Positions 1 to 25,356 are shown, numbered from the stretch's first letter. The stretch: DNA of 64,000 bases from Rhizodiscina lignyota (GCA_010015805.1 ML978126.1:1054001-1118000), one strand, 5' to 3'. Notes: a model not told the origin generated them from the sequence alone. A program made the numbers and translations.

Positions 1-3000
1 ACAAATATCCGCCAGAGAGGAGCCGCCCAAGATCTTGAGAACCGGTATATCAACATGCACTTCTTTCAGGAACCACGATCTGATCTCTACCGCCACCAGA
101 GAGTCGATCCCTAGTTTCAATAGTTGCGCGCTTGGGTCGATCGCCTCGGCAGAGACTTGCAATATCATTGCGAACTTGTCTATGCAGGCGCCCAGCAAGA
201 CAGCCAAAGCCTCTTCACTATTGCGCACCGTAGCCAGTCGGCCCTGAATACTCTGTGAAGACTGAGCTTGGTTACCGTCGGCGTCCTCCGCGCCATGCTC
301 GTTGTGGACGTAGGTGGCGAAACGAGGATTGCTGTGCCACAGAGCATTGACTTCCTCTCCGATCCCAATGATGATTTCGGGGTCTTCCTTCGAATCCGGC
401 CGCCCCGCGACGATGGCTTCGGCAAAGATCTCATGGAATTCAGGCTCCGACATCCTCATGTATCCAAACTTATTCAGGTGTTCTTCGTACTGTTCGAGAT
501 TGCGCGCGACGAAGCCGATCCCGAGGAGGAAGGCAATGTCCATGATTGAAGCCGCGACGCCCCTCTGTCTGCGCTGGCGTGTCAGAGCGTGCATGTACAT
601 GTTCGCTGCGGCGTAGTTTGACTGCCCCGGGTTGCCCATCACACACGACAGTGAAGAGAAGCAGATAAAGAAGTCCAGCTGGGTGGAGTAGAACAGCTCG
701 TCCAAATTACGGGTTCCGTCAACCTTGGGTCGGAGCGCCACTTCGAAGTCTTCCAAGGACATGTTGGTGAATAGCTTGTCGTTCAGCACCATAGCAGCGT
801 TGGCGACGCCAGCAATAGGCGGCATCGTTGCGCATAGATCTCCGTAAATCCTCAATACCGCTTCCTTGTCTGAAATGTCGAGAGGAAGAACTCTGATATT
901 GGCACCTCTGCGCTGTAGGTCCTTTAGTACTTCCGCATCGACCTTTGGGTTGCGGCTCGTGATTGCAATATGCCTCGCTCCGTGAGTGACCATCCAGTCG
1001 CAAATAGATAAGCCGAGCTCGGAGGCTAGACCAACGAGGAGATATGTCTTATTCTCCGAGAAGAGGTTGAATGCGTTAAGAGGGCTAATTTTGATGTCCA
1101 CTGATTCGACTCCTTCCCACCTAAGAACCGTGGTGGGATATACCGGACCGGAGAGTCTCGCCACTTGGTTCACGGGAATGGGTTCATGGATGGCAACATC
1201 ATCTGCGACAAAACCGAGGCTTGGAGACGATCCGGAGCGCGTGGCAATCCTAATCATCTCCTCGCGGTCATAATTGAGCACTATGGGGTTCACATCATGC
1301 CCTTGGCCGATGATCCCTCTTGTCTCAACTTCGTGGTTAGAAGTGCGAGTAACATAGTCGACCAAGTTGTTGGCCTCCCCGAAGTTCACAAAGGCCTGAA
1401 TGTCTGTCGGAACGATGGATTGCAGTTCCCGGTCTGTGGCATACGGATGAATGAACGCCTGCGTAGAATTAGAGTCGCTTCCTGGTCCCGAAGATGTGCT
1501 TAAGAACACGATGACTCCTCGTTCGGCAGCCGCACAGGCAATGAGCTTAGCCAAAAACGGATCAGCATCATGGACCCAGATTGGTCCTTTGACATCCCAT
1601 ACGAGGCTTTCAGCGATGAGGGTTCCCAAGAGCGCCTGCGCATCTTTCACAGTATCAAACTCGCCGTCGAGAGGGACTATGTCCTCCTTACTCACGCTAA
1701 GAAGCGATCGAGGAGAGGCGGAGAATGTTACCACCTTACGGTGAGTTCCCACTACCGAACCGACACATACGTAACAGGGCTTTTGGTTGCTTGTTCTGAA
1801 AGGGAAGTACGATGAAGCGTGGATTTGGATCTGGACGGTCTCGGCCGCCAACGCCACTTTGGTCGAGTCCTCCACCTGTCGAAGTGTACGGGAGCCATTG
1901 GTATCGACAATTTCCACACAATTGGATGTGGGAGACATGGCGTAGGTGATATCTCTCCTCTCCGAGTTCAACCTGTTGTTCATCGTCTCGCTAGGAAGGA
2001 TCCTCGGGATGTAGAGGGCGCCTCCTTCGACAGCTAGCTCCCATTCGTCAACCCACAACACATCTCCAAAATCGGCAGAGTCCAGACACAGTGAGCGGAT
2101 GAGCGTCTCGGCAAATAGTAGAGGATCCAATGTACTGTGATGCAGTGCATCTACATCCAGGAACCGCAGACGGAGATCAGGCAGTTCTTGTAGGACGGAT
2201 CGGCCCACGCCCACGACCATGTTGGATAGCGGATTGTCCGCACGGCAGCCTTGCGTGACCCATAGGACATGTTTAGCGTCTTGGAACACCGCCTGCGCCC
2301 CGCGAAACTTCGCAGGATTAACATCCCCGAACATGGGCGCATCCAGCTCGGAGAGGACTAGCACCGCCGCTCCAGATGGGACCTGTTCGACGTCCTCTAG
2401 CCTCCGTGCCAAAGTAAATTCTGAGACGATCGGCTGAAGGAGACTTCGAGCTTTTTGCACTAGCTTCGCTACGCGTCGCGATTCTCCCCCAACGATGAGG
2501 AGGTTATCCAGATGCGGCATTCTGTCCATGCATGAGAGAGGGTCGCGCAGGATTTCAACGCGCTCATCGATGGCCTGGCTGACGATGAGCGAGGCGAGAT
2601 ATTTCTTAGGATCGTCGTGATCTCTGTACGCAGCATCCACACCGGAGAAGCCTGTTGCCAATAACTCCTCATTCCATCGATCTTCATCGACCGTGGGATG
2701 ATACATCCGGCCGTCGTCACGGCCAAGCCACCAGCCAGGAAGGTGGGAGGAGGTGAATTGCGGTGTGAGCCCATCGTTGGTCACTTCATTGAGGATCAGG
2801 AAGCCTCCAGGCTTCAGCAAACTGCGGCAGTGAGCCAAGGTCTCCGCCAGAGACTTGGTGGCATGTAAGGCATTCGAGGACATGATGACATCGTACGAAT
2901 GGTCTTCGAAACCCTGGTCGCGGGGGCTGGCCTCTATATCCAGCACTGCGTACTCCATCAGCGCCGAATGCTCGCTAAAGAGTGTTCTCGCACTCTCGAA

Positions 3001-6000
3001 GAAGCCTGCCGAGATATCAGTATATGTATACGAATGGCAGTAGCTCCCAAGGCCCTTGAGCATGTGGATAGTCGCGCCGCCCGTTCCTGCGCCGATCTCG
3101 AGGACTTTCATGTGCGGATAGCGGTGAGCCAACTGTTCCGACACGGCGGCGAGATGACTGTACGTCTGTCGGAATGGAACGGCCTCGGCGTACAGCCTCG
3201 TAAGCATGTCGTTTTGCATCATGACCTGCAGCGCCGGGAGCTCGCCTCGGAGAATAGCAGGCTGGACTTGGCCAAGCGCCGTTATCATCTCCAGCTCCAC
3301 CATCCCTGGATACTTATCCTTCAATTGCGTCAACTCCTCACGCGTATCTGCGGCCCATTCTTTTTTGATGCGCGGGTGCCGTCCTGCTTCGACCTTGGGG
3401 AGGAGGTAGTTCAGGATCCAGTCAATCTGGATTTGGAAATGGCCTTCTAGTTCAGGAATCTCACTGGGCGAAATTTCGTCGCGTAGTCTTCGTAAATAAT
3501 AGTATGCGAGGCGTTCACAAGTATCGACGTACTCAACCTCCTCAGCGGTCAGATACTGGATTTGCTTGGGCTCAATGCCACTTGCCACATCTCTCTTCCA
3601 AACCGTCTTTGCGAAGAGTTTTCGGTCGTTTTGCGGCGTTGCTTTCGTGAAGGAGGAGCATGTCAAGGCGCGCAGCTGAATCTGTGGGTGACCGTTTGCG
3701 GACGAGGTGATGTTTACATCTCCGGACATCACTTTCGAGGTGGCTTTTGTAAGATAGCAGTCGGCAACAAGTTCACCGCTGTCGACAGGAGATGCCGAAA
3801 ACTCCAGCGCCACGGGATTGATGCGGATGTGCTGCACATTGGTGGGTAGATATGGAGTCCACAGTCGGCCGTCGCCAGGGAACGCCAAGGCGGTAAAGAG
3901 GCCATGAAAAGCAGAATCGAGCGTTGCTGGATGGAGTCGAAGTCGAGAGTTGTCCACGCGCTTAAGTGTGACCGTAGAAACATTAAGTCTCCTCTGCACC
4001 GAGTCAACGGTGAAGTCGCCTGTATACCGAAGGCCAACTTGCTCCATGTATGAATAAAGCCGGTCAACGCTGACTGGCTTCATTGGCAATCTTGGTGGAT
4101 TCCGGGCTGGCAAAACATCAATGGCAGGCGTTCCAAGACGGATAATCGCACGGCCTGTGAAATTCATGTTCTCCAGTTCCTGGGCCGCATCCCCATCCAC
4201 CTTGCAACTGTAGCACGAATACTCAGCCACAATCTGTCCTGGAGAGCGACCTGTAACTCGTATTGTGAAGGTGACTTCTGTACCGGCTGAGTCCTCCTCG
4301 AGTGTGATGGCGCGATGTATGGCGAGGTCCTCCAGCTCGACAAGTCTGACTTCCTCTGATGTCGTGAGGCGCATTGCCGCTTCGTAAGCCATGGACACAT
4401 AACCAGCAGCAGGAAAGAGAATTTGGCCCTGAAACATGTGACCTCGCAGCCACTCCATCTCCTGTACTCTCATGACGTTGCGCCAGATCACCTCGCGTCC
4501 CCCGCCGTGTGATGTCGCCGATCCAAGAAGCTCATGGATCGGGCTTTCGCGGCTGCGGTACTGTCGCGATTTGCGCGACTCCCTCCACATATGCTTACTG
4601 TGGTCCCAGGCATAAGGCGGAAGACCCTTAAGAACCGTCCCTTGGCCGATACTATCTCCAAGACAGGCCTTCCGGAATCCGCTAAAGTCGACAACAGGCG
4701 AGAGGGAGAGGAAATTGGACCAGATAAATCCTAGAGCATCCGCGAAGGAGTCCATATCGTCCTTTCCTCTGCTGAGAACACCACAATATGGTATGTCCAA
4801 GCCTGTCAGCGTCTTGAGGCTCTCTGATGCAGGAGCCTTGAGCGCCGCGTGCGGTCCGACTTCGAGCGCAATGTCGTGGCAGTGCTCTTCAGTCACCGCT
4901 CTTTCGAGTGCCTGAGAGAATAGCACTGGCTTAGTCATGTTGTCAACCCAGTAGGTGTCGTTGAGAAGGGCCTTCTCGTCTATGCTCCTTCCGTTCGAGC
5001 CATACACACTTGAGTACCATTTACACCGCAGCTGGCCTTTTCGGACTCGAATATCACAATTTCTGAGCGATTCAAGGTATGGCCCCGCACATGGATTCAT
5101 ATGATGCGAGTGGTATGCTTTGTCGACTTTGAGCACCCTTGCAAATGTCTGTTCTTCGTTCAAGAGCTCCTTGGCCTCGTCGATGGCATCCGCGTCGCCG
5201 GACAAGGTAACACTGGACCTCGAATTGCTTGCAGCTACCTGGATTCTACCAGCAAACTGTTCTCTGGTGCAGAAAGCACGCGCCTGATCAAGGCTCATGC
5301 CAACCGCCATCATCTTGCCGCTGTTCAGTCCAGCTAGATGAGCATACACACCGCGGTAATATGCGATACGGATCGCGTCAGACGCTTCCAAGTAGCCAGC
5401 GGCGTAAGCTGCTGCAATTTCTCCCGATGAGTGGCCAATAACGGCACTAAAGGTAATGCCGGAGGCATGGAGCAAGTTAATAAGAGCAACCTGGAGGGCG
5501 GTGCACAAGGGCTGCGAAATTTCCGCCTCGTGTATCCTGGATCTCTCGACCGGAGCAGTGAGCTCCACTGCTAGCGACCATGACGGAGAATCAGGCAACC
5601 TCTGTAGTGATTCTTCGAGAGCATCGATCGACTGTTTAAAGACTGATGACTGCGCGTAAAGACTAGCGCCCATCGAAGGCCACTGCGCTCCTTGGCCTGT
5701 GAATATGCCCAGGATCCGCGGCGGTAAGTCCTCCGTGACGTGGATCGCTTTTGTTGCTATCGAGTTGTGCGGATGTTGCGCTGCTTTGGCCGCCAGATCA
5801 TCCAGCTTCTTCGCCAGCTCCTCAGCAGTCGATGAAGAGACGTACGTCTTGTAGGGAAGCTCTGTACGACGAGTTTGCAGGGTCCAAGCCAAGTTCGAGA
5901 GGTCCGTCGTCTGTCCAGTCTTCAAAGCGCCAGATAGGGACCGAGCTCCGGCCAGCAGCGCCGATTCTGAATTGGCCGACAGAACGAGCGGACCACATGG

Positions 6001-7629
6001 GAGCTTTGGAGAATAAGGGCTAGGCGTAGAGGTGCTCATTGTAGTTGCTTCCGGAGTCCAGCTCTCGAGTATTGCGTGCGCGTTGGTCCCCCCAAAACCA
6101 AAGCTGTTCACGCTTGCACGCCGTGGGACGCCCGGGGGCATGACTGGCCATGGCTTGATTTCTGTCGGTATGCAGAGATTGGTATAGAATGGAGCAACCC
6201 TGGGATTAAGTCTGTTGAAATGCATGTTCGGTGGGATCAGGCCGTGCTGAACCGCCAAAGAGGCTTTCAGTAGCCCTGCTAACCCAGCGGTGCCCTCCAA
6301 GTGGCCGATGACTGTCTTTACTGATCCAATGTAAAGGCGTTCCTCTGCGTCGACGCTAGTTCGTATGTCGTCTTCGTTATCGTCTTCTGGATCTTCAGTT
6401 GCAAAGAATGCACCTTGCACAGCCTCTGCCTCGATTGCTAAAAGAACGTAAGAATTGTGAAGCAATGGATCTTGTGGTGAGGTCAAGCATACGGTCTCCA
6501 GCCATGGTCCCCGTTCCATGAGCTTCAAAATACTGGCAGCGGTCTTCCTTCCTCCGACAATCCAGTCCAGCCCTAGCATAAGTAGAGCGAATCAGCGCCG
6601 TCTGCGACATGGCACTGGGCACAGTGATTCCAGACGTGCGCCCGTCCTGGTTGACACCAGTTTCCCTGACGATGCATTCGATATGATCACCGTCTGCGAT
6701 AGCCTGAGTAAGGGTTTTAAGGAAAACCGCAGCGAAGCCCTCGCCTCGCGCATAGCCGTCTGCGTCGGCATCCCACATGCGCGATCTACCCGTCGGAGAA
6801 AGCATGTGGAGCTGGAGTATGGTCAGAGATTAGCGATTCTTTCCCTTCTTCCTCACCCAAGCTTGTCTGGGGAAGGCTGAGCTAACGCACCTTAGATTCA
6901 AGGATATATGGGTCCGGTCCAAGAATCAGATTCACGCCAGCTGCCACAGCTAGATTCGACTCGCCGCTCCTGAGCGTTTGCACGGCATGATGTAAGGCCA
7001 CCAAACTCGATGAGCACGCCGTGTCAATGGTGGTCGAAGGGCCTTTCCAGTCGAAAAAGTACGATACTCGATTAGAGAGAATGGCCCTAGACAAGCCAGT
7101 GGCGGCATATTGAGGCACACTATCCACATCTCGTAACAGCAGGTCCGAGTAGTCCTGAGTCATTTGACCGACGAACACGGCTGTCTGTGTGCCCTGGAGC
7201 TCCTGAATCGAATATCCCGCAGCATCCATGCCTTCATAAACTGTCTCCAAAAGCATACGTTGCTGAGGATCCATTGATTCTGCCTCTTTGGGGTGGATTT
7301 TGAAAAAGTTGTTGTCGAACACGCGGTGATCCTCCGTAAGAAGGTAGGAATGAAGCACGTTGGTACTCTAGAGTTTCGGAGAGTCTGTCAGTGCTATGTG
7401 CTCACGAGAACTGCCAATATGCTCATACCCCATGATATTCACCGTTCTCGTGGTAGAATCCCTTGGCATTGAATCGACTGGGAGGAATTTCCACCAAGAC
7501 ATCCCTCGGGTTTTTCAACAACTCCCACAGCTTTGACGGAGAACTCGCACCTCCTGGAAACCTACAACTACTTCCAACGATAGCGATAGGTTCCGGTGTA
7601 GATCGAGATTCGGCCATGGTGATTGCCAT
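1..7629 (-). CDS. Highly reducing iterative type I PKS of LovB/PKS-NRPS-hybrid type (KS-AT-DH-cMT-ER0-KR-ACP...), 3' end outside the window
   Basis: Manual translation gives KS ([36 protein letters not shown]), AT ([11 protein letters not shown]), DH ([18 protein letters not shown]), cMT ([12 protein letters not shown]), a degenerate ER-like spacer at ~1200-1950, KR ([23 protein letters not shown]) and ACP ([15 protein letters not shown] near 100). ATG is at 7629 or 7617. Introns are 7368-7428, 6812-6890 and 6438-6492. The last exon (from 6437) is in frame with the ACP and runs off base 1, which explains its absence from the ORF track. Confidence 0.96.
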
Positions 7630-8218: not shown

Positions 8219-9402
8219 ATGAGAACTCGAAGCACGTTAGTAGGAAAGGACGTTGGTCAGTACGAGCTGGTCCACGATGTTCCAATTCCTCGCGCGCAAC
8301 CTGAGCAGGTCATCTGCAGGGTTGCAGCCATCGCGCTCAATCCTACGGATTGGAAGATGGTAGACTTCTCTGTGGTTCCTGGCGCAGTCGGTGGGCACGA
8401 CTTTGCCGGCGAGGTAATTGAGGTCGGAGAGCAGGTAACACGGCTTAAAAAGGGCGATCGCGTGTTCGCGCTAGCAATTGGGTTCAACTCGGACGACAAG
8501 GCCACTGGCGCATTCGCCGACTACGCCATCACTTTCGCCGACGGCGCCTGGAGGATTCCGGACTGGATGTCGTATGAAGAGGCATCCACATTTGGCGTTG
8601 GTATTGGTACGGCGATCCTGGCGCTCTATCAGACGTTGGGGTTGCCACCACCAGATATCGACGGTACCACAGCATGCAAAAGGAAGCAAAAGAAGCCGGG
8701 GTACGTGTTAGTCTCTGGCGGGTCCACAGCGACAGGCACTATTGCAATCCAGCTCTTGAAAGCGTAAGAAAATTCCTCTACCGTTATACCCCCATCCGTT
8801 GGATTCTTCGGAATGAGAGTTTTGGGAGGAGTAAAGTTTCATGAGGGAATAGGGCTGACAAAAGTCTCCGTAGCTCTGGCTTCGTCCCAATCGTCACTTG
8901 CTCCCGCCAGCACATGGATATGGTCAAGTCTCTCGGCGCTGCAGCAGCGTTCGACTACAGCTCACCGCAATGCGGAAGCGAGATCCGCAGGTATACGAGT
9001 GGCACGCTCGAGTATGCCCTGGACTGCATCACCGAGGCGGGCACAATGAAGATGTGCTATGAGGCCATCAGCTCCGCAGGCGGGCGCTATGTAGGACTCG
9101 AGCCTCTGCCCACACACGTCCAGTACACGCGGCGACAGGTGCGCGCGGACTGGGTCATCGGCCGCACGCTCGCTGGGCTGCCCGTACGATTGGACGGCGC
9201 CTACGGCCGGCCAGCAAGACCAGAGGATCGCGAATTTGCCAAGCGATATTTTCCCATGGCCGAGAAACTCATTGCAAAGGGTCTGTTGAAGCCGCACCCC
9301 CTTGAGGTACGCGACGGCGGTTTAGGGGCTCTGATGGACGGCATCGACGACCTCCGGAAGGGCAAAGTCCGGGGGAAGAAACTCGTATATCCGCTTGCAT
9401 AG
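8219..9402 (+). CDS. Trans-acting enoyl reductase (LovC-like, MDR/GroES fold)
   Basis: Motifs ALNPTDWKM, GHDFAGEV, GGSTATGTIAIQLLK, VKSLGAAAAFDYSSP and GKVRGKKLVY. One intron, 8764-8873. Sits head-to-head with an ER0 PKS. Confidence 0.93.
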
Positions 9403-10572: not shown

Positions 10573-11865
10573 ATGCAGAAGATAATCTCGTCAGAATTCG
10601 TCAATTTCGAATATCTCCGCGTCCTCGGGACAGCCCCTTTACAAGGCGCCGAGGTCGGAGAGTGCCTCGAGGCCGCGAAAAGAATCAAGAGCAATGATCC
10701 CGAGAGCTGGTACAGTGCTTGGTCCGACGCGGCCGCAAAGAGCGAGTGGATTGCGGGAACGGCGGTGCGGTCGGGGGATCGGGAGGCAGCTCGGTGGGCG
10801 TTCCTCCGCTCGTCAAACTATCGCCGCGCCAGCGAGTTCCTTCTACACCACAATCCAAACGACCCAAGACTTCTAGAGTCTACCACAAAGTCCGTCAGCA
10901 ACTTCAAGAAGGCGTGCAGACTTTTCGACAGCCCAGTCCACTTTCTCGAGATACCCTACGAGAAGAATGCTACGCTACCGGCTTACCTTTTCATGCCGAC
11001 GGCATCGTCGCTCCGTCCAGGTAAGGTGCCCGTCGTCATTAGCACGGGAGGCTTCGACTCGATCCAAGAGGAACTCTACTACTTTACCGCTTCGGGAGCA
11101 AGGACTAGAGGATATGCAACGCTCTCCTTCGAGGGGCCAGGCCAGGGAATCGTGGCCCGCCGGGATAAGCTCCGCCTGAGACCCGACTGGGAAGTGGTCG
11201 TCGGCAGAGTACTTGACTGGCTTCACACCGCCCCCAACGAACATCCAGAATGGAACCTGGACATGTCGCGCGTGGCGCTAGCCGGAGCATCCATGGGAGG
11301 CTATTTTGCGCTGAGGGGTGCAATGGACCCACGAATCGCCGCCTGCGTTTCCATCGACGGCTTTTACGATCTGGGGGCAGTGACGCGAGCGCGCGTCTCG
11401 GGACCCTTGATGAATGCTATAGAGAAACATTACCTGCCAGACGGCGTATTTAACGCGCTTCTGGGAATAGCCGCCGCACTCAGCTTCCAGAATGGTTGGG
11501 AGTTGGGACACGCTATTCTGGCAACAGGTATCATGTCACCGGTAGAGGTGATGCGCACCTGGGCTGGCTATACTATGGCGCTACCGGACGGCAAGTCTCG
11601 CCTGAGCCAGATCAAATGCCCAGTGCTGGTAGCGGGTGCGCGAGATAGTATTTATGTTCCGTTGGAAGAAGACGAGCGAATCTACAATGAGCTGGTGCGA
11701 TTTGAGGGATCTGATAAGAAACACGAGCTGTGGATTCCAACTGGTCCGGGCCAGGGATCGTTGCAGGCAAAGGTGGCGGCGTTGGCAAGTCTCCATACCA
11801 AGACGTTTGGTTGGCTTGATGATGTTTTTGGGATCAAAAGAGAGTCTCTCGTCGTGGATCAATGA
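10573..11865 (+). CDS. Alpha/beta hydrolase, FUS2/PsoB-like (2,6-dihydropseudooxynicotine hydrolase-related)
   Basis: Intronless 430 aa. Motifs RSSNYRRASEF, GGFDSIQEELY, FEGPGQG, LRPDWEVVV, nucleophile elbow GASMGGY, and C-terminal GPGQGSLQAK as recalled for hybrid-cluster hydrolases. Confidence 0.88.
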   Translation: MQKIISSEFVNFEYLRVLGTAPLQGAEVGECLEAAKRIKSNDPESWYSAWSDAAAKSEWIAGTAVRSGDREAARWAFLRSSNYRRASEFLLHHNPNDPRLLESTTKSVSNFKKACRLFDSPVHFLEIPYEKNATLPAYLFMPTASSLRPGKVPVVISTGGFDSIQEELYYFTASGARTRGYATLSFEGPGQGIVARRDKLRLRPDWEVVVGRVLDWLHTAPNEHPEWNLDMSRVALAGASMGGYFALRGAMDPRIAACVSIDGFYDLGAVTRARVSGPLMNAIEKHYLPDGVFNALLGIAAALSFQNGWELGHAILATGIMSPVEVMRTWAGYTMALPDGKSRLSQIKCPVLVAGARDSIYVPLEEDERIYNELVRFEGSDKKHELWIPTGPGQGSLQAKVAALASLHTKTFGWLDDVFGIKRESLVVDQ

Positions 11866-13109: not shown

Positions 13110-14353
13110 TTACTTTTGGGCGAAATGACCTCCTGGGCCAAGTTTAGCTCTCAGATATGTTGTGAGCAGGTTTTGTGCCACAATCTCTTCCTTTCTTGCC
13201 TCGAGATCCCCGACTGTCCAGTTTGCCGAGATGAATCGCCCTCGAAGGAAGTCAGCCCGGGGAGTGCAGAGATATAAGGAAACACCGGCGGATAGTGCAG
13301 CTAACGAGGACGTATCTGTCAGCATGATACCAAGCCTCTGGATATTTACAAAATGCATACCGGTATCTATGTTCGCCCCAGCAAGCATACCGAACTGAAC
13401 TCCGTTAGGGACGATGCCTGGATGGAGGTTGAACGCCCGAATATTTGGGTGTTCTGCCAGGAGTTAGCTTGTTATTAATACTACAGCACGGCAATGGTAA
13501 GGTGGCCTGGAGGAAAAGATTGGGTGTACTAACCTGCATGCACATATTCTATAAGCCGACAGCCTGCTGACTTTGTAATGGCGTAGTTCGATCTTGTCGG
13601 GACCGTTTCCACCGCCATTGAGCTGGTCATATTGATGAATGTGACCGGAGAGTCGGATTTCAAGTTTGCAGCATGCCGTGTCAGCAGATAGAGAGCCTTT
13701 ACGTTAGTTTCCTATCAGTATTGTGGCCCTGGGTCAGCACAGTTTCGAAAGCTTCGAGTAAAGCCGCCGCGGGAAATGAAACGTACGAAATCTCCCCACC
13801 ACCCACTGATATCTGTATCTCCAATCCTCTTCATCTGCGAGCGCGATGCGGCACAGCTAACAACAACGCTGACAGTACCAAATCGGCTCACCACATTGTT
13901 CCAAAGACGTTCGACGTCCGCCTCGGAAGTCAAGTCGCATTGAATACAGACAACTTCAGTATCCCGGTAGGTATCCTCAATCTCTTTTTTCAGTGCTTCT
14001 AGCACCTCAATTCTGCGGGCAGTGATGATGATAGCTCTTGCGCCGGCTTTGGCGAACGATCGTGCATGTTCCTACTTTGATATGAGTAATGACTTCTGTA
14101 GGCAACTCCTAGGCCGCTTTTTCGATAATACCTGCCTGCACTTGCAAGGCCAATATCACTGTATGCAGACAATGCTTACCGCTCCAATTGGTCCGCTAGC
14201 ACCTGTGATCAAGACTATGCGTCCGTCCTGCTTTAATTCGGAACTTCCAGGGTCGATTGAGGGATAAACATCGTGATGGAAGGTGGGCGTAAATAATTGA
14301 TGATACACAAATCTATCCTTCTCCGCCTCTGCTTGCATTTCGGCGGCCGTCAT
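13110..14353 (-). CDS. Short-chain dehydrogenase/reductase (multi-exon)
   Basis: HHDVYPSIDP leader, Rossmann motif VLITGASGPIG, QCDLTSEADV, catalytic YAITK, FNLHPGIV and DFLRGRFISANW. About 5 exons joined by GT-AG introns. Confidence 0.88.
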
Positions 14354-15008
14354 CTTTTACGCATGAACTTGAGTCTGTCTGCCGTGAACAGCAGTGTCCC
14401 ACGCGCGAATGGGTAAGATTTTGGACTTCTACCAGTGCATATTCTACGAATGGGAGTGGTGAAATTTAAAAAGAAGAAAAGAAGAAAAGAATCAAGACTG
14501 CCCTTTCTTCAGCTTACCTGCCAGTATGTTCCAGCTCGCTCGCTTACGTAATATGGCTCACAATTGAAAATATCCTCCGCAATGTCGGCGGATATCCCTT
14601 TTATCTACCGCCCCGATTCAATCGAACGCCAAATGTTCCTGAAAATCGTCAAAGCATCAGGCATCTCACGCCCCCATTGAAACCCATCAGCTAATCTCGA
14701 GTGAGGAAGGATTTATTCGTTTATCTAAATGATTGAACTGAGAGAGTCGTTAATCCACACGGCGTGTAGAGGCCGGTTCATGTCAGCTCGGCTGGTTTAT
14801 CGGCGTGTTAGTTTCTTTCCTCATATCGACTCAACCACTTATTTGCACAGCCACTTGGATTGAAAGACCGGTGCAAATCAGACATCGGGGTTGGAGGATG
14901 AAGGACAAAAGAGCTGCTGATGCACTTTGCAATGTCTGTGAAATCAATTGGAGGCCTATAGAGGCCTGGCGCGCACGTCACCTAGGGCCCATCAAGACCT
15001 GATCAAAT

Positions 15009-18000
15009 ATGCAGACCTCATCAACATCGGCACAATCGGAGATAATGGCGCCCGATAGGAGGATGCGCGCCACGATTCTCGTCAACGAGCACGAGATAGC
15101 AGACGGCGGACGGGAACCCAGCGCGGAAGAGGTTTCCTTGCTGCTGAAGTGGAATAGCGATCGCGGCGTGCCCTCAGAGGCTGTCAACAACTGTATCCAC
15201 GAGTTGGTTGACAAACAAGTCCTTCTTCGGCCGCATGCACTAGCTGTTCATGCCTGGGACGGCCAGCTTACTTACGAGCAGCTAGACGAGCTAGCAGAAC
15301 GGTTGACACATCACCTCATCAACGACGAATATGCGGTGGGGCCTGAATCGAAAGTCCTGCTATGCTTCGACAAGTCGATGTGGGCAATAGTGGCTATGCT
15401 CGCGATCCTCAAAGCCGGCGCAGTCGTCGTTCCTCTGGGGACGATAAACCCAGTTCCAAGGCTCGCACAAATTGCCAAAGACACGGAGGCGACTCTCATG
15501 CTCGTTGGACCGCAGTACGCTTCACGGGTGGCTGGACTGGTCCCTCACGTCCTAACCGTGGATGGGTCTTTGCTCGGGAGGCTGCCGGTGCCTACAGCCA
15601 AGGCCGCCGCCAAAGTGACCGCACGGAATGCAGCCTATATTATTTACACATCCGGTAGCACAGGGGTCCCAAAGGGGGTGGTGCTCGAACATTCAGCATT
15701 GTGTACAAGTTCGCAGGCTCATGGCCGGGCGTTTGGGCTTGGACCAGACACGCGAGCAGTCCAATTTGCAGATTACGCATATGACGTTAGTTTGGCGGAC
15801 ATCTGGTTCACTCTTCACCACGGCGGCTGCATCTGTGTCATGTCCGAGCAGGACCGGATGGACAATATTGTCGGGGCTATTGGAGTGCTGGATGGGAATA
15901 CCATCAACCTTACCCCGACTGTGGCAATGTTGCTTGATCCGGCCAAGGCTCCCAAATTAAGAACTCTCATCCTAGCCGGAGAAAATTGTCATGCCTCTAT
16001 CATCGAAGCGTGGAGTAACAGGGTGGCTCTCTATAACTCATACGGGCCGTCCGAAGCCTCATTCGGAGTAACCGTCAACGGACCGGTTGTCGACTCCAGA
16101 GCTGCCGGTAACATTGGGCGTCCAGTCGCGGGCTCTCTGTGGATCGTCGATGCCGCTGACTACAATCGGCTTTGTCCCATTGGTGTTCCAGGAGAGATTC
16201 TAATCGAAGGACCACTGCTGGCGCGTGGTTATCTCAACGACTCTGCGAAAACGGCATCGGCATTCATCATGGACCCAACGTGGGCAGCTCAATATGGCCT
16301 GGGACATGGCCGTCGGATGTACCGCACTGGAGATATGGCACGGCAAAACCATGACGGCTCATTAACCTACCTAGGCAGAATGGACAACCAAATCAAGGTG
16401 CACGGCGGACGGCGAGTTGAGTTGGGCGAGATCGAACACTGGATCCGAGTTTCCCATCCCGATGTGCGGGCTGTTGCTGTCGACGCCATCACTCCTCGCG
16501 AAGACGAGGCCACACCTGTGCTAACTGCTTTCGTTGAATTTGATAAAGACAGCGTGCATGTTCCTGGGACGAATGTTTCGACGCCCGGACCGTGCCCAAT
16601 GTCGGAAGGTATGCGAGATAAGTTTAGCAACTTACAGATGTCGCTACTCAACGCATTACCACCGTATATGGTTCCCGCACTGTATATTCCCATGGCACAG
16701 CTTCCCCAAACCGCCTCTGGCAAACTGGATCGAAAGTTGATCCGCCACCTTTTTGCAAATTTTACTCGCGAGGAATTATTGAAATTTACCCTAGCAAACT
16801 CTGCTAAGGCAGCACCCACCGACTTGGAGCGCCGACTTCAGGGTTTCTGGGCAGATGTGCTGGGGCTAGGAGCCGATTCGATAGGAACACAAGACAACTT
16901 TTTCCAGCTCGGTGGAGACTCGATAGCCGCCATGCGTCTGGTGTCAATGGCTAGAGCTAATGGCCTCGATCTTGAGGTAGCGGACGTGATACGCCGTCCG
17001 ACCCTGGCCGACTTGGCCGCTAAGATATCTTTGAAAACCTCGACAGACTCTCCGGCAACGACGTACCAGCCGTTCTCGCTTTTACAGCTTGAGGTGGATA
17101 AGGATACATTTCTTTCAGAAGCCGTGTACCCTTCAACAAAGCACCTGAATAGTCCCGTGGTCGACGTTCTGCCTGCAACCGATTTCCAAGCTCTTTGTGT
17201 GGCGGGTGCCTTGTCAAATTCGCGCTGGCAACTCACCCATCTCGCTTTTGACGGCGACGGTCTGTTCAATGTTGGTAGGTTGAGGAAGGCTTGTCATCAG
17301 CTCATCGCAGAGCACCAAGCTTTCCGTACCGGTTATGTTTTCCATGCGGGACGGCTATTGCAGGTCGTTCTGCAAGCTCACGAGCCACATATCAATGTGT
17401 ATGAGACAGAAGGATCTGTCGACGATGTCACCAAGACATTACTCGAGCATGATCTATACAGACCCCCTCGGTTCGGCCAACCATTTACGCAGTTTGCGAT
17501 AGTTATCAAAACTGGAACCTTACAGCACAGGATTATCATGCGTACGACACACGCCGAGGTAGATGGCCTCACAATCCCACTCCTCGGTCGCAGCTTTCAA
17601 GACCTCTACAACGGCACTCCATCAGGTTCATACGCAAACCACGCCCATTATGTGTCTTGCTCGCTCAAGGACAGTGATAATGCGTACGGCTACTGGCGTA
17701 AGTTCCTCCAGGGCTCGTCAGTCACAGAGATTGGCCGCGCATACGCAGTCCATCCCCACCGTGCCACAGCACTGCAGGGCCACCCAGTGGAGGTGGTGCC
17801 TACCGAAGGTGCAGCGGCGCTGAAGAGCATAACGATTTCCTGCATTGTACGTGCGGCCTGGGCCTTCGTTCTCGCCCAAGTGACCGAGGCGTCCGACGTA
17901 CTGTTCTGCGACGTTGTTGCGGGCCGCGGTAACGGAGCAGATGAGAAGCTGGAGACCACAATGGGCTGCTGCGCGAACGCCGTGCCGCTGCGACTGGCGA

Positions 18001-18740
18001 TCCCGCCATCAGCCACTATCATGGACCTCCTTCTCGCCGTGCAGGACCAGGTGCTAGCACGCATGCCATACGAGACCGTCGGCTTCCGCAAGATGCTTGA
18101 GGACTGCCCCAACTGGCCCCTGTCGCGATGGACGATTGTCAATCACCTCAGCGCTATGCCGACTGCGAATATGGCCCTGAAGGAGGGTAGCCGAGGGAAA
18201 GGAGACCTCGGAGAAGAGGACACCACGACAGACTACAAGTTCTCTATCCTGCCGGCGGTAACCAACGTTGATCCGACCAATGCTCGTGTCACAACAATCC
18301 CAGGCCCCGGGTGCGTTTTTGTCCGCTTCAATTGGAACCGCGATACTGTCCCTGATGAGCTGGGCGAGGCGCTTCTCAAAGCACTATGTGCAGCGATTGC
18401 TTTGTTCGCTGCCTTCCCAGAAGATCCTCTCCCTTATTCTTTGCTCTCAACAGATGGCAATGATCATGGCAACGGAGGAAGCGATACAAAGCGGGATGAC
18501 CTGCTGGCTCGTCTGCGTGTAGCGGTTGATGACGGGCGCCGGTGGCAGCGCGAAGCATCACGGCATGTACCAGAGGAAGCCGTTCGGCAGTTCTTCCGGG
18601 GAGACAACGTCGAGGCGGCCCGGGTCGTGTTTGAATTACAGCGGGAGGGCCTCGCGGTCGGCTTGGATGATGTACTGGACTACCCTACAATAGACGCCCT
18701 AAGAAAAGCTGTCCAAACCGGGTCAGGATCTCCGGTGTAA
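15009..18740 (+). CDS. Monomodular NRPS, A-T-C(terminal type)-degenerate T
   Basis: Intronless 1243 aa. A domain: LTYEQL, LKAG, YTSGSTGVPKG, YGPSE, GEILIEGPLLARGY, YRTGD, SGKLDRK. T domain: FFQLGGDSIAAM. C domain: THAEVDG. C-terminal T-like remnant: FFRGDNVEAARVV...VLDYPTI. Confidence 0.94.
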   Translation: MQTSSTSAQSEIMAPDRRMRATILVNEHEIADGGREPSAEEVSLLLKWNSDRGVPSEAVNNCIHELVDKQVLLRPHALAVHAWDGQLTYEQLDELAERLTHHLINDEYAVGPESKVLLCFDKSMWAIVAMLAILKAGAVVVPLGTINPVPRLAQIAKDTEATLMLVGPQYASRVAGLVPHVLTVDGSLLGRLPVPTAKAAAKVTARNAAYIIYTSGSTGVPKGVVLEHSALCTSSQAHGRAFGLGPDTRAVQFADYAYDVSLADIWFTLHHGGCICVMSEQDRMDNIVGAIGVLDGNTINLTPTVAMLLDPAKAPKLRTLILAGENCHASIIEAWSNRVALYNSYGPSEASFGVTVNGPVVDSRAAGNIGRPVAGSLWIVDAADYNRLCPIGVPGEILIEGPLLARGYLNDSAKTASAFIMDPTWAAQYGLGHGRRMYRTGDMARQNHDGSLTYLGRMDNQIKVHGGRRVELGEIEHWIRVSHPDVRAVAVDAITPREDEATPVLTAFVEFDKDSVHVPGTNVSTPGPCPMSEGMRDKFSNLQMSLLNALPPYMVPALYIPMAQLPQTASGKLDRKLIRHLFANFTREELLKFTLANSAKAAPTDLERRLQGFWADVLGLGADSIGTQDNFFQLGGDSIAAMRLVSMARANGLDLEVADVIRRPTLADLAAKISLKTSTDSPATTYQPFSLLQLEVDKDTFLSEAVYPSTKHLNSPVVDVLPATDFQALCVAGALSNSRWQLTHLAFDGDGLFNVGRLRKACHQLIAEHQAFRTGYVFHAGRLLQVVLQAHEPHINVYETEGSVDDVTKTLLEHDLYRPPRFGQPFTQFAIVIKTGTLQHRIIMRTTHAEVDGLTIPLLGRSFQDLYNGTPSGSYANHAHYVSCSLKDSDNAYGYWRKFLQGSSVTEIGRAYAVHPHRATALQGHPVEVVPTEGAAALKSITISCIVRAAWAFVLAQVTEASDVLFCDVVAGRGNGADEKLETTMGCCANAVPLRLAIPPSATIMDLLLAVQDQVLARMPYETVGFRKMLEDCPNWPLSRWTIVNHLSAMPTANMALKEGSRGKGDLGEEDTTTDYKFSILPAVTNVDPTNARVTTIPGPGCVFVRFNWNRDTVPDELGEALLKALCAAIALFAAFPEDPLPYSLLSTDGNDHGNGGSDTKRDDLLARLRVAVDDGRRWQREASRHVPEEAVRQFFRGDNVEAARVVFELQREGLAVGLDDVLDYPTIDALRKAVQTGSGSPV

Positions 18741-19100: not shown

Positions 19101-19125
19101 CTGTCACTCTATCTATATGTGTCAT

Positions 19126-21129
19126 TCACACCCGAAAAAACTTGATAGGTCTAGGATTGCTCTTAGGGATAGACTTCCTATGAGCAAGCAGTACCCTCTG
19201 ATCGGAAGGTGGTGTGATGTCCGTACTTGTACTCTGTCGACTGATCAAGGGTATCTCCATGCTAGCACCATCGCCAACATCTGCGTCGGCCCCCGTTCGG
19301 TTCGTCAGTCCATAGTTAGTCTCGAGCTTGTCACGTAGCTGCACCTGTTTAATCAGCACGGCCAATATGAAACCCACAAGGGCAAATGCGATGCCGACCT
19401 CCCAGACTAGCCTAAGGCTGTCGAGGTAGACGCTCAACACCTGTGACCTCAGCGTCGGGGTCGAGTCGAGAGAACGTAGAAACTGCGACGATGCCAGGGC
19501 ATACGCCCCGCCGTTGGCAAGGCGTCTGCGGATATCCTGATCGTCGACGCGCCTGCGTAGCCGGTCAACTTCCGAGTTGAAAATCGCGGTCGGGATTGCA
19601 GCCCCCCAGATACTGCCGAGGCTCGCAAGAAAGGCCCATGTTGCGGTTGCAACGGCCTGGTCTGATTCTGAAAGAGTAGCTTGGATGGCAGGTAGTATAG
19701 TACTGGCGAGCAAGCCGATGCCCGCGGCACTCAGCAGCTGTGTACCCACCCAGTATCCCGTCGATGAGGTTGCATCAAGCCGGGAAAATAGACCACAAGC
19801 GACGGGCAAGGCCGCCGTGCCTATGAGATGAAAAGGCCGGTACTTTCCGAATTTGGACAGAAGTACGCCCGCCAGCAGGGCAAAGGGCATGGCCCCGATT
19901 GCCGTCGGCAGGACGTCGACCCCCGATTTGCCCGGCGTAGCGCCCAAGACCGCCTGAAAGTAGAGAGGTAAGATGTAAGTGACCCAAGACGTGATCATGG
20001 CGTGGAAAAAGGCCAGGGCATAACCGGCTGAGGAGGTTCTGTTCGAGAAAAGCTGCCTTGGTACTGTCGGCTCAGCAATGAAACCAGAAAATTCCAAAGC
20101 GAAGAAGCCGATAAGCCCAAGCAGGCCCAGGACCAAAGGTAGTACAATCCTCCACGAATACCATGGGTACTGCGTTCCTCCGAAAGTTAGCGCCACCAGG
20201 ATCGAGACCACGGACGAGATCAGAACGAAGTTTCCGACAAAATCTATACGCGAGATGACGCTTTGGATACTTCTGTCACGCTCGTGCTTGAGATCCAAGA
20301 AGAGTACCAGCAGAATTAATCCCACGGCGGCCAGGGGCAAGTTGATGTAAAAGATCCATCTCCAAGACAAGTGCTGGGCAATGGCGCCGCCGACGGGCGG
20401 TCCAAAGGCGATGGCGACGGCGTAGAAGCTCTGAACTATAGCCATGTATTTGGGCCGGTCGCTCAGTGGCACAAGGTCGCCGACTATGGTATTTATCATG
20501 ACGCCAATTCCGCCGCCACCACTGCCTTGGACCGCACGGCCAGCGATAAGGGCGGCAATGTTAGGTGCAGAGCCAGAGATGGCGGAGCCCAAAGCGAACA
20601 AGAGGACCGCAGTGATGATCAAACTGCGCCGGCCGACGATATTGGCTAGCTGGCCGTACCTTTACTCAGATTGTGCAAATTAGCAGATATCCTGCGAATA
20701 TTCGAACACGCAAAGATCATTTCATGTCAAACATCCTCAAGGATGCATGCAACTGTCATCAGCTTATCTGTACAGGGGTTAAACGCCCGACTCCTAACTT
20801 CTCACACAATTTGCATAGACATATCATCATATTGCACAACAGAAGTACGTACAGGGGCTGAAAGGCCGTTTCCATGAGGATGTAAGCGTTGGCAACCCAG
20901 GCATAGGCGGAACTTGAGCCGAGATCGCGAATGATTGTCGGCAGTGCCGTAGAAATAATAGACACATCGAGTGCGGAGAGGAGCGAAACGATCGATAAAG
21001 CTGCGAAGATAGCCTAGAGAATGGCAGCGGAGGTCAGAGAAGGCAACACTGGAGTCGCTTGTTTTGTGCTCTTACCCAGAAACGCCAGCCACGATTTTTT
21101 GGAGAGCCTGGATTCTTGGGAGGATCCAT
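19126..21129 (-). CDS. MFS drug:H+ antiporter (DHA2/14-TMS type) efflux pump
   Basis: Spliced N-terminus RGWRFW/AIFAAL..LSALDVSIISTALPTI..FQPL/YGQLANIVGRR, then GRAVQGSGGGG and WRWIFYINLP, with many TM helices. ATG at 21129, two 5' introns. Confidence 0.92.
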
Positions 21130-21694: not shown

Positions 21695-23212
21695 CTATAC
21701 CGCCTCTAAGTTTCTGATTAGCTGCTTTGCTGTCTTTATCCCCGCATACACCTTGTCCTGGTCGCGGTTCATCATTACCATCGCCGCCTTGATGGCTCTG
21801 ATGCACCCGGTTGATGCATCCGTAGTGCTCCCATCTGACGTAAGCTCACTATTCTCATCACCGCGGCCGACCCGCAGCCGGCGATGTGATGAGTGTCCCC
21901 GCAAATCCGGGGACTCTGAAGAACCGGAGGACGACGATGAAAGGCGGCGTGGTAGAGCTGTCGGTATCGTGGCGCTGGCAACCGGCATCATGGCCCTGTA
22001 TTCAACAAGCTGGTCGAGCGCCCGATTTAGCCGTTGGAGCTGGTGAGCGACAAGCTTTACGACTACGAGAGCTTGCGTCGTCGGCATTTCCATAAAAGAA
22101 AACGGGTTGGTTTGAAAATCTTCGCTTCGTTGTCGCTCGGGCGGAGAAAAGGTTTGTCCGCCCCCAATAGACAGGTTGACCGAACGACGGACTTGCTGGT
22201 CAATTGGAGGAAATAGAGTCTGCTTGTGTTGGCCACAGCGTCTGAGTTGGTGAGCGATAGAGCAAAGGATGCTCCAGAATGCGGTAAGCAGGCGCTGGTG
22301 ACAAGCCACGATCATCAGCACGACGCCCAAGTCTGCGCTCTTGCCGGCAGACGAACACATCCCACCATGATGCCTCGAGCCGCTGAAACAGTCATCGTCC
22401 CAATCCGGCGGAGTAGGAAACATAGAAACATCATCGTTATGCAAGTGAGTAGCAGCATTAACGCCGGAGCAGCCGCTTATGCAACGGCTGACGATCCCGA
22501 TAAAGGTCTCGCTAGCGGCAAAAATGTCGTTAAGCGCCGGTGAGGAAGCGCTCAGCAATGTCTGACCAGGCCGGGAGACCGCTTTGACCGCACGATAGAT
22601 TCGGAGACTGAGATCCGCAATCTCCTCAGTGTCTCTTTCAATGGCGTCTGCAAATGACTGCTTCATAGATCCCTCTGGTTCTGATTGGACGGGCCTGCTT
22701 GCTGGGGAAACCTCATCTTCCGAAGGGCCAGCTTGCGAACGTGACTGAGACGATGAAGATTCGATTGGCGGCATGTTAGGAACAGCAGTCAAGAAGTCAA
22801 GGTCGTAGCCAGGCGCATTGCTCAACCACAGTTCTTCCCCGACCATGAAAGGCGAAAACTGAGCTGGGTCTACAGAGACTGAGCCGCGCTGGGTTGCTGA
22901 ATCACTTGGGCGACCCACGGAAGGCCGAAATGTCCGCGGGGGAGATTGTCGCAGTCTCTTCCGAGCGTAGGATGCTGATGTAGCCGTGTCTTGTGCATCA
23001 CTCCCGAGTGGTGGCCGACCGGGCTTTTGCTGAGGACTGTAGATGCATACTGAACCAGCTCTCCTGCACCGTGAACAGGACTCAGAAGGTAGTGTCTCGA
23101 GGCCGACTTCTGCATTTCTAATGCATCGAACCTTCAAGCCGTGGCAGCGGTCGCACGACTGGCGAAGAGGCAGTGGAGAACTTTCAGGAGGCGTCGAATA
23201 TGACATTATCAT
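21695..23212 (-). CDS. Zn(II)2Cys6 pathway-specific transcription factor
   Basis: RQSCDRCHGLKVRC...SCSRCRRAGSVCIYS binuclear cluster followed by KPGRPP. Likely ATG at 23212 or 23206. Intronless, about 505 aa. Confidence 0.93.
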   Translation of the reverse strand: MIMSYSTPPESSPLPLRQSCDRCHGLKVRCIRNAEVGLETLPSESCSRCRRAGSVCIYSPQQKPGRPPLGSDAQDTATSASYARKRLRQSPPRTFRPSVGRPSDSATQRGSVSVDPAQFSPFMVGEELWLSNAPGYDLDFLTAVPNMPPIESSSSQSRSQAGPSEDEVSPASRPVQSEPEGSMKQSFADAIERDTEEIADLSLRIYRAVKAVSRPGQTLLSASSPALNDIFAASETFIGIVSRCISGCSGVNAATHLHNDDVSMFPTPPDWDDDCFSGSRHHGGMCSSAGKSADLGVVLMIVACHQRLLTAFWSILCSIAHQLRRCGQHKQTLFPPIDQQVRRSVNLSIGGGQTFSPPERQRSEDFQTNPFSFMEMPTTQALVVVKLVAHQLQRLNRALDQLVEYRAMMPVASATIPTALPRRLSSSSSGSSESPDLRGHSSHRRLRVGRGDENSELTSDGSTTDASTGCIRAIKAAMVMMNRDQDKVYAGIKTAKQLIRNLEAV

Positions 23213-23652: not shown

Positions 23653-25356
23653 ATGTATGTCACAGCTGCTGTAATCAGCGCGATCGCAGCCATAGCGGCC
23701 TTTTTCGCACGAGGCTCTGATTCAAGCCCACGCGTCAGCATCTCCAATGGTACCGTTATCGGGACGAGCTCAGACGGTGTTGATACTTTCCTGGGGATTC
23801 CCTACGCGCAGCCTCCCACAGATTCCCTTCGCTTGAAACGACCTCAGGCACTGTCACACACATTTGGAACCATCCAAGCCACGTCCATTCCCAGAGCATG
23901 TCCGCCGCTGAAGGTTAGGGCCGACCCTCAGATGCTGTCGCAGATCCCGCCAGAGATCGCAGGTCATCTCGCCACCTACTTCCAGGAGCCCACGTTTATT
24001 GGCGAAGATTGCTTGACGCTTAACGTCCAGAGACCCGCCTCTGTTACGCCCAATTCCAAGTTGCCAGTGCTCGTTTGGATATACGGCGGTGGCTTTGAGC
24101 AAGGATCTACCCAGCAGTACGACTTTGCTCGTCTCGTCAATACGTCTATTGCGCTCGAGCACCCCATAATCGTCGTACAGATGAACTGGCGGGTATCCGC
24201 TTTCGGCTTCCTGGGAGGGAAAGAGCTCCAGCAGGACGGCAGTACAAATCTCGGCCTACGTGACCAGCGCTTCGCTCTGCAATGGATCGCCGAAAATATT
24301 GAGGCCTTTGGTGGGGATCCGTCCAGAGTCTCTATCTGGGGCGAATCTGGAGGCAGTATGTCCGTCTTCGACCATACTATGATCAACGGTGGCGATCACA
24401 CGTATAATGGGAAACCACTATTCCGCGGTGCCATCCTGAACTCAGGAGCTGTTGGGCCTGCGCTTCCCGTGGATGCTGCGGTGGCTCAAAAGACATACGA
24501 TACCATCGTCGATACAGCCGGCTGCTCCTCGTCGACAGATACGCTCGCTTGTCTCCGAGACCTGCCGTACGAGGCCTTCCTGAATGCGTCAAATGTGACC
24601 CCAAATATGTTCAACCAGGACGGCGTGGCCGTTGCCTTTACGCCGCGACCAGATCCATCCGACAATTTTTTCCCAGTCTCTCCGGATGAGGTCTTGGTAT
24701 CTAGCCCGCCGAAGGTGGCCCCCGTGCCCATACTTGCTGGCACGATGGAGGATGAAGGCACCTTATTTGCCCTGGCGCTATACAGGGCCCCCACAAAGGA
24801 TGCGTTGATCGACATCATCCACGGCATTGCTCCGACCTGCCCCCGATCCACGTTCGAGCGTCTCTTCTCCTTCTATCCTGACGAACCAAGTCATGGCTCG
24901 CCCTTTGGCACAGGCGAGGCCAACGAGCTCTACCCTGGCTACAAGCGCAATGCAGCCATCGCTGGGGACCTCTGCTTCGCGTTCCAGCACCGTTTGCTCC
25001 TCGAGGCGGTCTCGGACATTATCCCCACGTGGAGCTACCTCTCCACGTACGGGAGGCAGACCCCATTGATAGGCACGTTCCATGGCGCTGACGTTGCGCT
25101 GCTGGCCACCGGTTTCATAGACCCATTGTACCGGGCCATGGTACAATACATCGTCAGCTTCGTGCACCATCTCGATCCCAACGTCATCAGCAAGATGGAT
25201 GGCGGCGCAAGAGGCCTCCCCGAATGGCCAAGGTACGGAAAGAAGAATAAAGATATGATGCAGTTCACGGACCAGGGGCTGCAAATTGGGAAGGATGATT
25301 TCCGGCAGGAGGCCTTCAACTATTTTTCTTCCCAAATTTCTCAAATGAGATGGTGA
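23653..25356 (+). CDS. Secreted type-B carboxylesterase/fungal lipase
   Basis: Hydrophobic N-terminus, FLGIPYAQPP, EDCLTLNV, WIYGGGF and NLGLRDQ. Nucleophile WGESGG, acid residue in EDEGTLF, His in GTFHGAD. Confidence 0.93.
   Translation: MYVTAAVISAIAAIAAFFARGSDSSPRVSISNGTVIGTSSDGVDTFLGIPYAQPPTDSLRLKRPQALSHTFGTIQATSIPRACPPLKVRADPQMLSQIPPEIAGHLATYFQEPTFIGEDCLTLNVQRPASVTPNSKLPVLVWIYGGGFEQGSTQQYDFARLVNTSIALEHPIIVVQMNWRVSAFGFLGGKELQQDGSTNLGLRDQRFALQWIAENIEAFGGDPSRVSIWGESGGSMSVFDHTMINGGDHTYNGKPLFRGAILNSGAVGPALPVDAAVAQKTYDTIVDTAGCSSSTDTLACLRDLPYEAFLNASNVTPNMFNQDGVAVAFTPRPDPSDNFFPVSPDEVLVSSPPKVAPVPILAGTMEDEGTLFALALYRAPTKDALIDIIHGIAPTCPRSTFERLFSFYPDEPSHGSPFGTGEANELYPGYKRNAAIAGDLCFAFQHRLLLEAVSDIIPTWSYLSTYGRQTPLIGTFHGADVALLATGFIDPLYRAMVQYIVSFVHHLDPNVISKMDGGARGLPEWPRYGKKNKDMMQFTDQGLQIGKDDFRQEAFNYFSSQISQMRW

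Follow-up and report, generated by a model that had tools for sequence, protein, structure and literature searches.

In this work, we analyzed a stretch of 64,000 nucleotides of Rhizodiscina lignyota (GCA_010015805.1 ML978126.1:1054001-1118000; hereafter the window), whose left end carries a gene cluster built around a hybrid of polyketide synthase (PKS) and nonribosomal peptide synthetase (NRPS), together with a second, free-standing NRPS of adenylation-thiolation-condensation (A-T-C) layout. Within the window, stop-to-stop open reading frames (ORFs) and Pfam matches served as gene evidence, the absence of an enoyl reductase (ER) domain being judged at E<=0.001. Nine genes of intact appearance were found between positions 1 and 25356 (Table 1), and the three that are split, encoding a trans-acting ER, a short-chain dehydrogenase/reductase (SDR) and a major facilitator superfamily (MFS) transporter, all read open when spliced through canonical GT-AG introns. 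An earlier note on this DNA had described nine contiguous, apparently intact genes at this place, and this description was confirmed.

Table 1. Features of the cluster and of its right-hand neighborhood (positions counted from the first nucleotide of the window).
Feature	Position	Strand	Evidence
PKS part of the PKS-NRPS hybrid, KS-AT-DH-cMT-(no ER)-KR-ACP	1..7629	-	Pfam; protein P0392, 100% identical
Trans-acting enoyl reductase, MDR family	8219..9402	+	ADH_N, ADH_zinc_N
Fus2/'Knoevenagelase'-type alpha/beta hydrolase	10573..11865	+	FrsA-like Pfam match; own protein P0122
Small integral membrane protein, 166 residues, distantly anthrone-oxygenase (DUF1772)-like	12376..12876	+	Weak Anthrone_oxy match
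Short-chain dehydrogenase/reductase (SDR)	13110..14353	-	adh_short Pfam match
Single-module NRPS, A-T-C plus 200-residue tail	15009..18740	+	Pfam, one 1243-codon ORF
A domain of the NRPS, residues 71-411	~15213..16235	+	Pfam
T domain of the NRPS, residues 611-673	~16833..17021	+	Pfam
C domain of the NRPS, residues 724-1046	~17172..18140	+	Pfam
Carrier-like degenerate segment in the NRPS tail (FFRGDNVEA...), Asn for phosphopantetheinyl Ser	18588..18731	+	Alignment to T domains
MFS (TRI12-like) transporter	19126..21129	-	Pfam
Zn2Cys6 transcription factor	21695..23212	-	Zn_clus Pfam match
Type-B carboxylesterase, right cluster edge	23653..25356	+	COesterase, E 1.5e-80
DUF7730 gene	26696..28281		
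Class-I-type chitin synthase	39631..42384		
HET-domain gene	48166..49788		

To the right of 25.4 kb, the window holds DUF7730, protease, chitin synthase, HET, FMN-dehydrogenase and similar genes, none of them biosynthetic; therefore, the right border was placed at the esterase gene, and the cluster extends only leftward. The DUF7730 gene is seemingly split over two frames. No gene for a cytochrome P450, a Diels-Alderase or a Baeyer-Villiger oxygenase was identified in the window, which bears out the remark of the earlier note on the first two. A lipocalin-like gene was not noticed in the window either, with no search aimed at XenC or XenF having been made, and a tblastn search with the EthD protein of a related metagenomic locus (L001, see below; E<=1e-3) found no EthD gene in the window, beyond which the cluster continues to the left.

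The synthetase gene displays KS, AT, DH, cMT and KR domains and leaves the window at base 1 within the ACP; Pfam recognized no ER domain at the above threshold, and a sub-threshold NAD-bd_HRPKS_sdrA match was the only trace of one. A protein search with this 2197-residue ORF retrieved the annotated 3821-residue protein of the same genome (P0392), 100% identical and encoded on a contig of 2.16 Mb, where the ACP is followed by Condensation, AMP-binding, PP-binding and NAD_binding_4 matches, i.e., C-A-T and a terminal reductase domain (R). Because P0392 carries C-A-T-R past the ACP, the PKS belongs to a complete PKS-NRPS. Thus, of the ER-less highly reducing PKS named in the earlier note, the missing ER was upheld, and the synthetase as a whole proved to be a full hybrid with the order KS-AT-DH-(cMT)-ER0-KR-ACP-C-A-T-R (ER0, no ER) of the pyrrolinone type. 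The C motif (HHIALDG), the A motifs and the T motif (GGNS) of P0392 look intact, and its terminal domain retains the glycine motif TGATGFLG and the YxxxK pair YEASK, which together we take, from the general meaning of these motifs, to mark a true reductase and not a Dieckmann cyclase. About 165 residues of the ER0 region, where the window ORF is open (~1950-2450, minus strand), are omitted from the P0392 model; this gap is probably a false intron of the public gene model, and the real protein would be longer. Regarding relatives of solved structure, the best is PsoA (2544 bits), a likeness to the pseurotin system, followed by LovB (1792 bits). Three relatives of the PKS part (P0242, P0243 and P0246, ~46-50% identical) end as ACP-C-T without A, as ACP-R without an NRPS module, or as ACP-C; the C-terminal module of such relatives seems variable, and some of these may be cut gene models.

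The ER gene has one intron (~8764-8852) and a spliced product of ~364 residues, 49-59% identical to the ER encoded beside the PKS in four metagenomic loci (L001-L004, see below). The hydrolase (P0122), of the Fus2/CcsE alpha/beta type, shares 49-50% identity, along 99% of its length, with proteins that bear the name 'fusarin C cluster-hydrolase', and its orthologue group (>=57% identity) is separate from the named Fusarium proteins. The set of PKS-NRPS, trans-ER and Fus2-type hydrolase on which the earlier note had built its reading is supported by the Pfam matches, by P0392 and by the hydrolase identities. The MFS gene has two introns and encodes ~610 residues, 52-54% identical to the L001-L004 transporter, and the transcription factor matches the Zn2Cys6 protein of L001 at 49% identity in the DNA-binding region and at 27% across 210 residues. 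As for the small membrane protein, its Anthrone_oxy match (E 2.9e-4) lies under Pfam's cutoff; in a protein atlas it groups with ascomycete clusters labeled 'integral membrane protein', with Anthrone_oxy in 18-36% of their members, and homologues are encoded in L001-L004 (27% identical) and in two other loci, L016 and L018 (25-27%). The exact single-exon readings of the membrane protein and of the transcription factor were absent from a collection of 15 billion proteins.

A 16-nucleotide word, TCGGNNGGTTTATCGG, occurs twice on the same strand (12159-12174 and 14788-14803): one copy lies 217 bp ahead of the start codon (ATG) of the membrane-protein gene, the other 221 bp ahead of that of the NRPS gene. 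Such a pair is at chance level for 7.6 kb, and the word is absent from the other promoters of the cluster; it serves at most as a lead for a regulator site.

Six genes, namely those for the PKS-NRPS, the trans-ER, the Fus2-type hydrolase, the small membrane protein, the MFS transporter and the Zn2Cys6 factor, constitute a conserved cluster. Orthologues of its core (PKS-NRPS and hydrolase) at 64-77% identity were found in at least 14 named Trichoderma species, counted as the members of two 90%-identity hydrolase clusters plus T. barbatum and T. atroviride. With both clusters the hydrolase shares 77% identity; the members listed in them belong to the Harzianum clade, T. viride, T. gamsii and T. 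austrokoningii; the PKS-NRPS is 64-73% identical (best local alignment) to those of T. harzianum, T. atroviride, T. barbatum, T. austrokoningii, T. pleuroticola, T. afarasin and others, with more distant relatives in Xylogone (58%) and A. sclerotioniger (55%). Over the full length of the PKS-NRPS, the window copy shares 68% with T. harzianum and 66% with T. atroviride, and these two share 69.5% with each other; consequently, the window fungus lies about as far from both Trichoderma species as they lie from one another. Two T. gamsii models (P0526 and P0528, 2831 and 2305 residues) share the 90%-identity cluster of the 432-residue hydrolase, and short JGI pieces in that cluster carry PKS-fragment names, which suggests that the hydrolase has been fused with the neighboring synthase in the T. 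gamsii gene models.

To compare gene order, contigs from metagenomes were scanned with 20 aligned hydrolases as the query, which yielded 80 loci. Among these, L001-L004 represent one organism in four samples, with a hydrolase 58% and a PKS 52% identical to those of the window, arranged as AT-rich flank, hydrolase, Zn2Cys6 factor, MFS, membrane protein, an ORF of 184 codons, EthD, ER and PKS; in the stretch examined, from the AT-rich flank through the PKS, no NRPS, SDR or esterase is present. Furthermore, the accessions of PKS and hydrolase are six apart in T. barbatum, SZMC 28011 and SZMC 28014, which, read from the numbering alone, fits with five genes between them in these three Trichoderma genomes, as in L001. 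A second group (L018, with L016 and L043) comprises hydrolase, EthD, a membrane-protein homologue, MFS and PKS, with no ER. The AT-rich flank (L001 1-9900, L002 1-4000 and L004 1-7900) has 28-38% GC and no ORF of 110 residues or more, next to ~57% GC in the cluster, and looks like a repeat-degraded block at the cluster edge.

The closest characterized gene set that we found is the flavipucine (flv) cluster of Aspergillus terreus. According to the passages available on it, flv comprises the PKS-NRPS FlvA, the hydrolase FlvD, the hypothetical protein FlvB, two EthD proteins, two transcription factors and an MFS; its hybrid is described as making a triketide only, and FlvB is proposed to cleave the C-N bond of a pyrrolinone oxidatively, leading to a 2-pyridone (PMC13525150). 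When gene kinds are compared by these descriptions, flv and the L001-L004 core are alike in having a PKS-NRPS with a reductive end, a hydrolase, EthD, an MFS, a Zn2Cys6 factor and a small protein, and the window keeps these gene kinds except EthD. In contrast to flv as described there, the window and its orthologues have a trans-ER, conserved beside the PKS where an flv-type cluster would lack it, and a cMT domain in the PKS; nor do those passages give flv a second NRPS, an SDR or an esterase. The locus thus resembles flv by description, which we do not equate with membership, and the membrane protein is a candidate FlvB counterpart only, by its position and its co-occurrence with EthD and hydrolase. 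The cluster had been called apparently unassigned in the earlier note; this holds for its product, none being given in the full-text literature searched (which included few subscription journals and no supplements), and does not hold for its core, which is of a widely conserved Trichoderma type with a flavipucine-like gene set.

Other hybrid systems share parts of this set. A hydrolase gene is described as marking pyrrolinone-forming hybrid clusters in the passages of PMC7421883, and, as far as these and the passages on PyiE/ORFZ (PMC7898483) go, the fusarin, pseurotin and cytochalasin clades are alike to the locus in a PKS-NRPS ending in R and a Fus2-type hydrolase. Unlike these clades, the window has no Diels-Alderase, P450 or Baeyer-Villiger oxygenase; a Diels-Alderase gene is missing as well between hydrolase and PKS in L001, and a cytochalasan as the product of the core is not supported. 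T. harzianum is reported to make cytochalasans, in passages that give no gene cluster (PMC12790558). The earlier note had likened the small membrane protein to PydX and XenD, which makes it a putative counterpart of these. The systems for tyrosine-decahydrofluorenes (xenoacremone, xen; pyrrocidine, pyd) are alike, by the description of gene kinds in the main text, in their PKS-NRPS, trans-ER, hydrolase, transcription factor and small 'hypothetical' proteins; one of the latter, XenD, oxidizes a pyrrolidinone intermediate, and the main text assigns to it neither a family nor a membrane nature (PMC8642415). The trihazone cluster (thn/tho, of T. harzianum and A. flavipes) was tried as a match and rejected, tho having a Dieckmann-cyclase end, a P450, an FMO and alpha-KG enzymes, and no hydrolase (PMC12843353).

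The free-standing NRPS reads as one uninterrupted ORF from its first ATG. Its translation keeps motifs A3-A10 in the A domain, GGDS (within LGGDSIAAMR) in T and THAEVDG in C, and the A domain has an Asp in YDVS and a Lys in SGKLDRK, which presumably indicate an alpha-amino acid as substrate. In the 200 residues that follow the C domain, no Pfam match was obtained (neither A nor PP-binding); nevertheless, the last ~50 residues align to both T domains of the protein P0002 (E 0.01 and 0.02), with Asn at the Ser position. The earlier note had proposed an A-T-C(T) protein, of which an extra, free-standing A-T-C synthetase stands; the final T is unrecognized by Pfam and survives as a weak, Ser-less carrier-like remnant. 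Folding of the tail from its single sequence gave a mean pLDDT of 45.8, too poor to use.

Single-module enzymes of this kind have been characterized. In the passages of PMC10720950, the A-T-C NRPSs AneB, ThmA and FlvI esterify amino acids onto (terpene) alcohols, DrcB forms an amide with a polyketide (a depside), and mutagenesis of the AneB C motif (QHxxxD) showed that only the second His and the Asp are required. The window NRPS is like these enzymes in its A-T-C order within one free-standing protein, as judged by Pfam, and like AneB in its carrier Ser (GGDS) and in the second His and Asp of THAEVDG; as with their genes, it sits in a cluster for a different class of scaffold. Unlike them, as they are described there, its partner scaffold would be a PKS-NRPS hybrid and not a terpene or depside, and it has an extra tail of 200 residues with a Ser-less carrier-like end. 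The earlier note knew of no characterized cluster of the hydrolase-type PKS-NRPS kind with a free-standing A-T-C NRPS, and none was found in the literature searched.

The SDR and NRPS genes diverge from a shared spacer of 650 bp and sit between the membrane-protein gene and the MFS and transcription factor genes; because conserved members flank both sides, the pair is nested inside the conserved set. No flanking repeats or transposon scars were found around it. The SDR gene has three introns and a spliced product of ~316-320 residues, and had no tblastn match (E<=1e-3) in the 80 hydrolase-centered loci. The esterase corresponds exactly to P0502 of the protein collection and likewise had no match in those loci; its earlier label as secreted is based solely on a hydrophobic N-terminus, judged by eye.

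With the integration of these findings, we tentatively interpret the locus, at somewhat below an even chance, as a copy of the conserved Trichoderma-type PKS-NRPS cluster with a lineage-specific insertion of SDR and NRPS, by which the hybrid product would gain an amino acid, and with a carboxylesterase at its edge. By analogy with the enzyme families involved, the PKS-NRPS and the trans-ER would produce a methylated, partly reduced polyketide; an alpha-amino acid would be joined to this chain, reductive release by the R domain would give an aldehyde, and the Fus2-type hydrolase would then close a pyrrolinone ring. The small membrane protein may oxidize this pyrrolinone, possibly with expansion to a 2-pyridone as proposed for FlvB, and the SDR may make or adjust a hydroxyl group. 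The NRPS would adenylate an alpha-amino acid and load it onto its own T domain, from which the C domain would pass it to the hybrid product, at a hydroxyl group or an amine; an ester formed in this way could be trimmed or reversed by the esterase, and the MFS protein would export the product. Hypothetically, the latter could be the aminoacylated or macrocyclized scaffold put forward in the earlier note. Regarding the parts of this interpretation, the link of the NRPS, a lineage-specific addition, to the hybrid pathway is plausible and unproven, at or somewhat below an even bet; that it is a working aminoacyl transferase which adds a second amino acid, as ester or amide, to the hybrid product, with its Ser-less tail in a docking or substrate-presenting role, we consider unlikely. 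If this were so, it would be, within the literature searched, the earliest example of such an enzyme at work on a pyrrolinone or pyridone derived from a polyketide and an amino acid, and A-T-C-T0 proteins would form a subfamily of their own, present in at least one distant fungus as well.

Several observations weigh against a role of the insertion in the hybrid pathway. An orthologue of the NRPS was found in 0 of the 80 hydrolase-centered metagenomic loci, so that it is not co-conserved with the core; NRPS-like matches at E<=1e-10 were obtained in six of them, none more than 30% identical, and at least some of these resemble the NRPS module that a hybrid carries. The co-conservation of NRPS and PKS, on which the earlier note had in part made its reading depend, thus failed, a syntenic relative being without NRPS, SDR and esterase. 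A homology search in a collection of 5.8 billion proteins gave 7494 matches, and none of the best 120, which were listed, exceeds 46% identity or is named as Trichoderma. The window NRPS did not retrieve itself among these listed matches, nor did any of three start variants have an exact match among the 15 billion proteins, a collection that does contain the PKS-NRPS, hydrolase and esterase encoded on this contig; the NRPS may be unannotated or differently modeled there. Since the window NRPS itself is missing from the collection, the inference that it has no orthologue is slightly weakened. Finally, among the promoter regions of the cluster (n=6), no 8- or 9-mer is common to four or more, and no CGG-N-CCG spacing is shared.

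The same observations can be accounted for if the NRPS, possibly together with SDR and esterase, constitutes a separate small pathway interleaved with the PKS-NRPS cluster, making for instance an ester or amide between an amino acid and some unrelated alcohol or amine, or if it is a 'gap' gene without a role. The absence of the NRPS from L001-L004 and from the whole set of 80 loci, the lack of an orthologue among the best 120 protein matches, the missing common promoter motif and the accession numbering of the three Trichoderma genomes, which by itself leaves no room for extra genes between PKS and hydrolase, are all in line with this explanation. Furthermore, AneB alone esterifies simple alcohols such as 2-phenylethanol, according to the passages of PMC10720950. 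However, the SDR-NRPS pair lies between conserved members and not at the edge of the cluster, it is accompanied by neither a second regulator nor a second transporter, and the NRPS does not differ from its surroundings in base composition: its GC content at third codon positions is 0.58, within a span of 0.49-0.70 among the neighboring genes, and reveals nothing foreign. We consider this explanation possible and rather doubtful.

An improbable alternative is that the NRPS is the relic of a two-module A-T-C-A-T synthetase, inactive or decaying after the loss of its second A domain and of the second carrier Ser. Five of the seven relatives scanned are A-T-C-A-T proteins, one of them an NRPS from an ochratoxin producer (30% identical), and these are the closest longer relatives checked; the window protein has neither a second A domain nor a functional second carrier. 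Weak alignments (E<=1) link its tail to many of the 120 listed relatives, at T-domain positions in the cases checked, with Asn replacing Ser; the scarcity of close relatives among the best 120 of the 7494 matches and the failure to find the NRPS as an annotated protein of its own genome would also suit a decaying gene. Nevertheless, the 1243-codon frame is unbroken and all core motifs of A, T and C are intact, and A-T-C alone is a working architecture, as described in the passages of PMC10720950. The closest near-full-length relatives among the best 120 matches are P0085 (39% identical, 1264 residues, from another organism) and a Chaetomium protein (37%), and P0085 is collinear with the window NRPS to the very end, with the same tail and Leu at the carrier Ser position; because P0085 shares this layout at 39% identity, A-T-C with a Ser-less carrier appears to be old and maintained, and no fresh truncation. 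In addition, proteins with these three domains are common in ascomycetes, the protein atlas containing clusters (66 and 126 members) of proteins of 1087-1200 residues with AMP-binding, PP-binding and Condensation domains. Last, a role of the NRPS upstream of the hybrid synthetase, supplying an unusual amino-acid building block or docking through its carrier-like tail, is very improbable: the Ser-less tail could conceivably serve as a docking element and the adjacent SDR could conceivably modify a tethered amino acid, but C, A, T and R domains of intact appearance are already present in the PKS-NRPS itself, and no precedent was found in the literature searched.

As an advance for the field, this locus is incremental and brings no new principle. 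The conserved core is found across Trichoderma, a biocontrol genus, yet it lacks an assigned product in the literature searched, and to tie it to a compound would be worthwhile by itself. Furthermore, the window copy constitutes a natural experiment, in which an SDR and an NRPS have been added to the shared core; a comparison of its products with those of an insertion-free Trichoderma would reveal the function of the Ser-less carrier-like tail and show whether single-module NRPS aminoacyl transferases are recruited by fungi as a means of diversifying their hybrid scaffolds.

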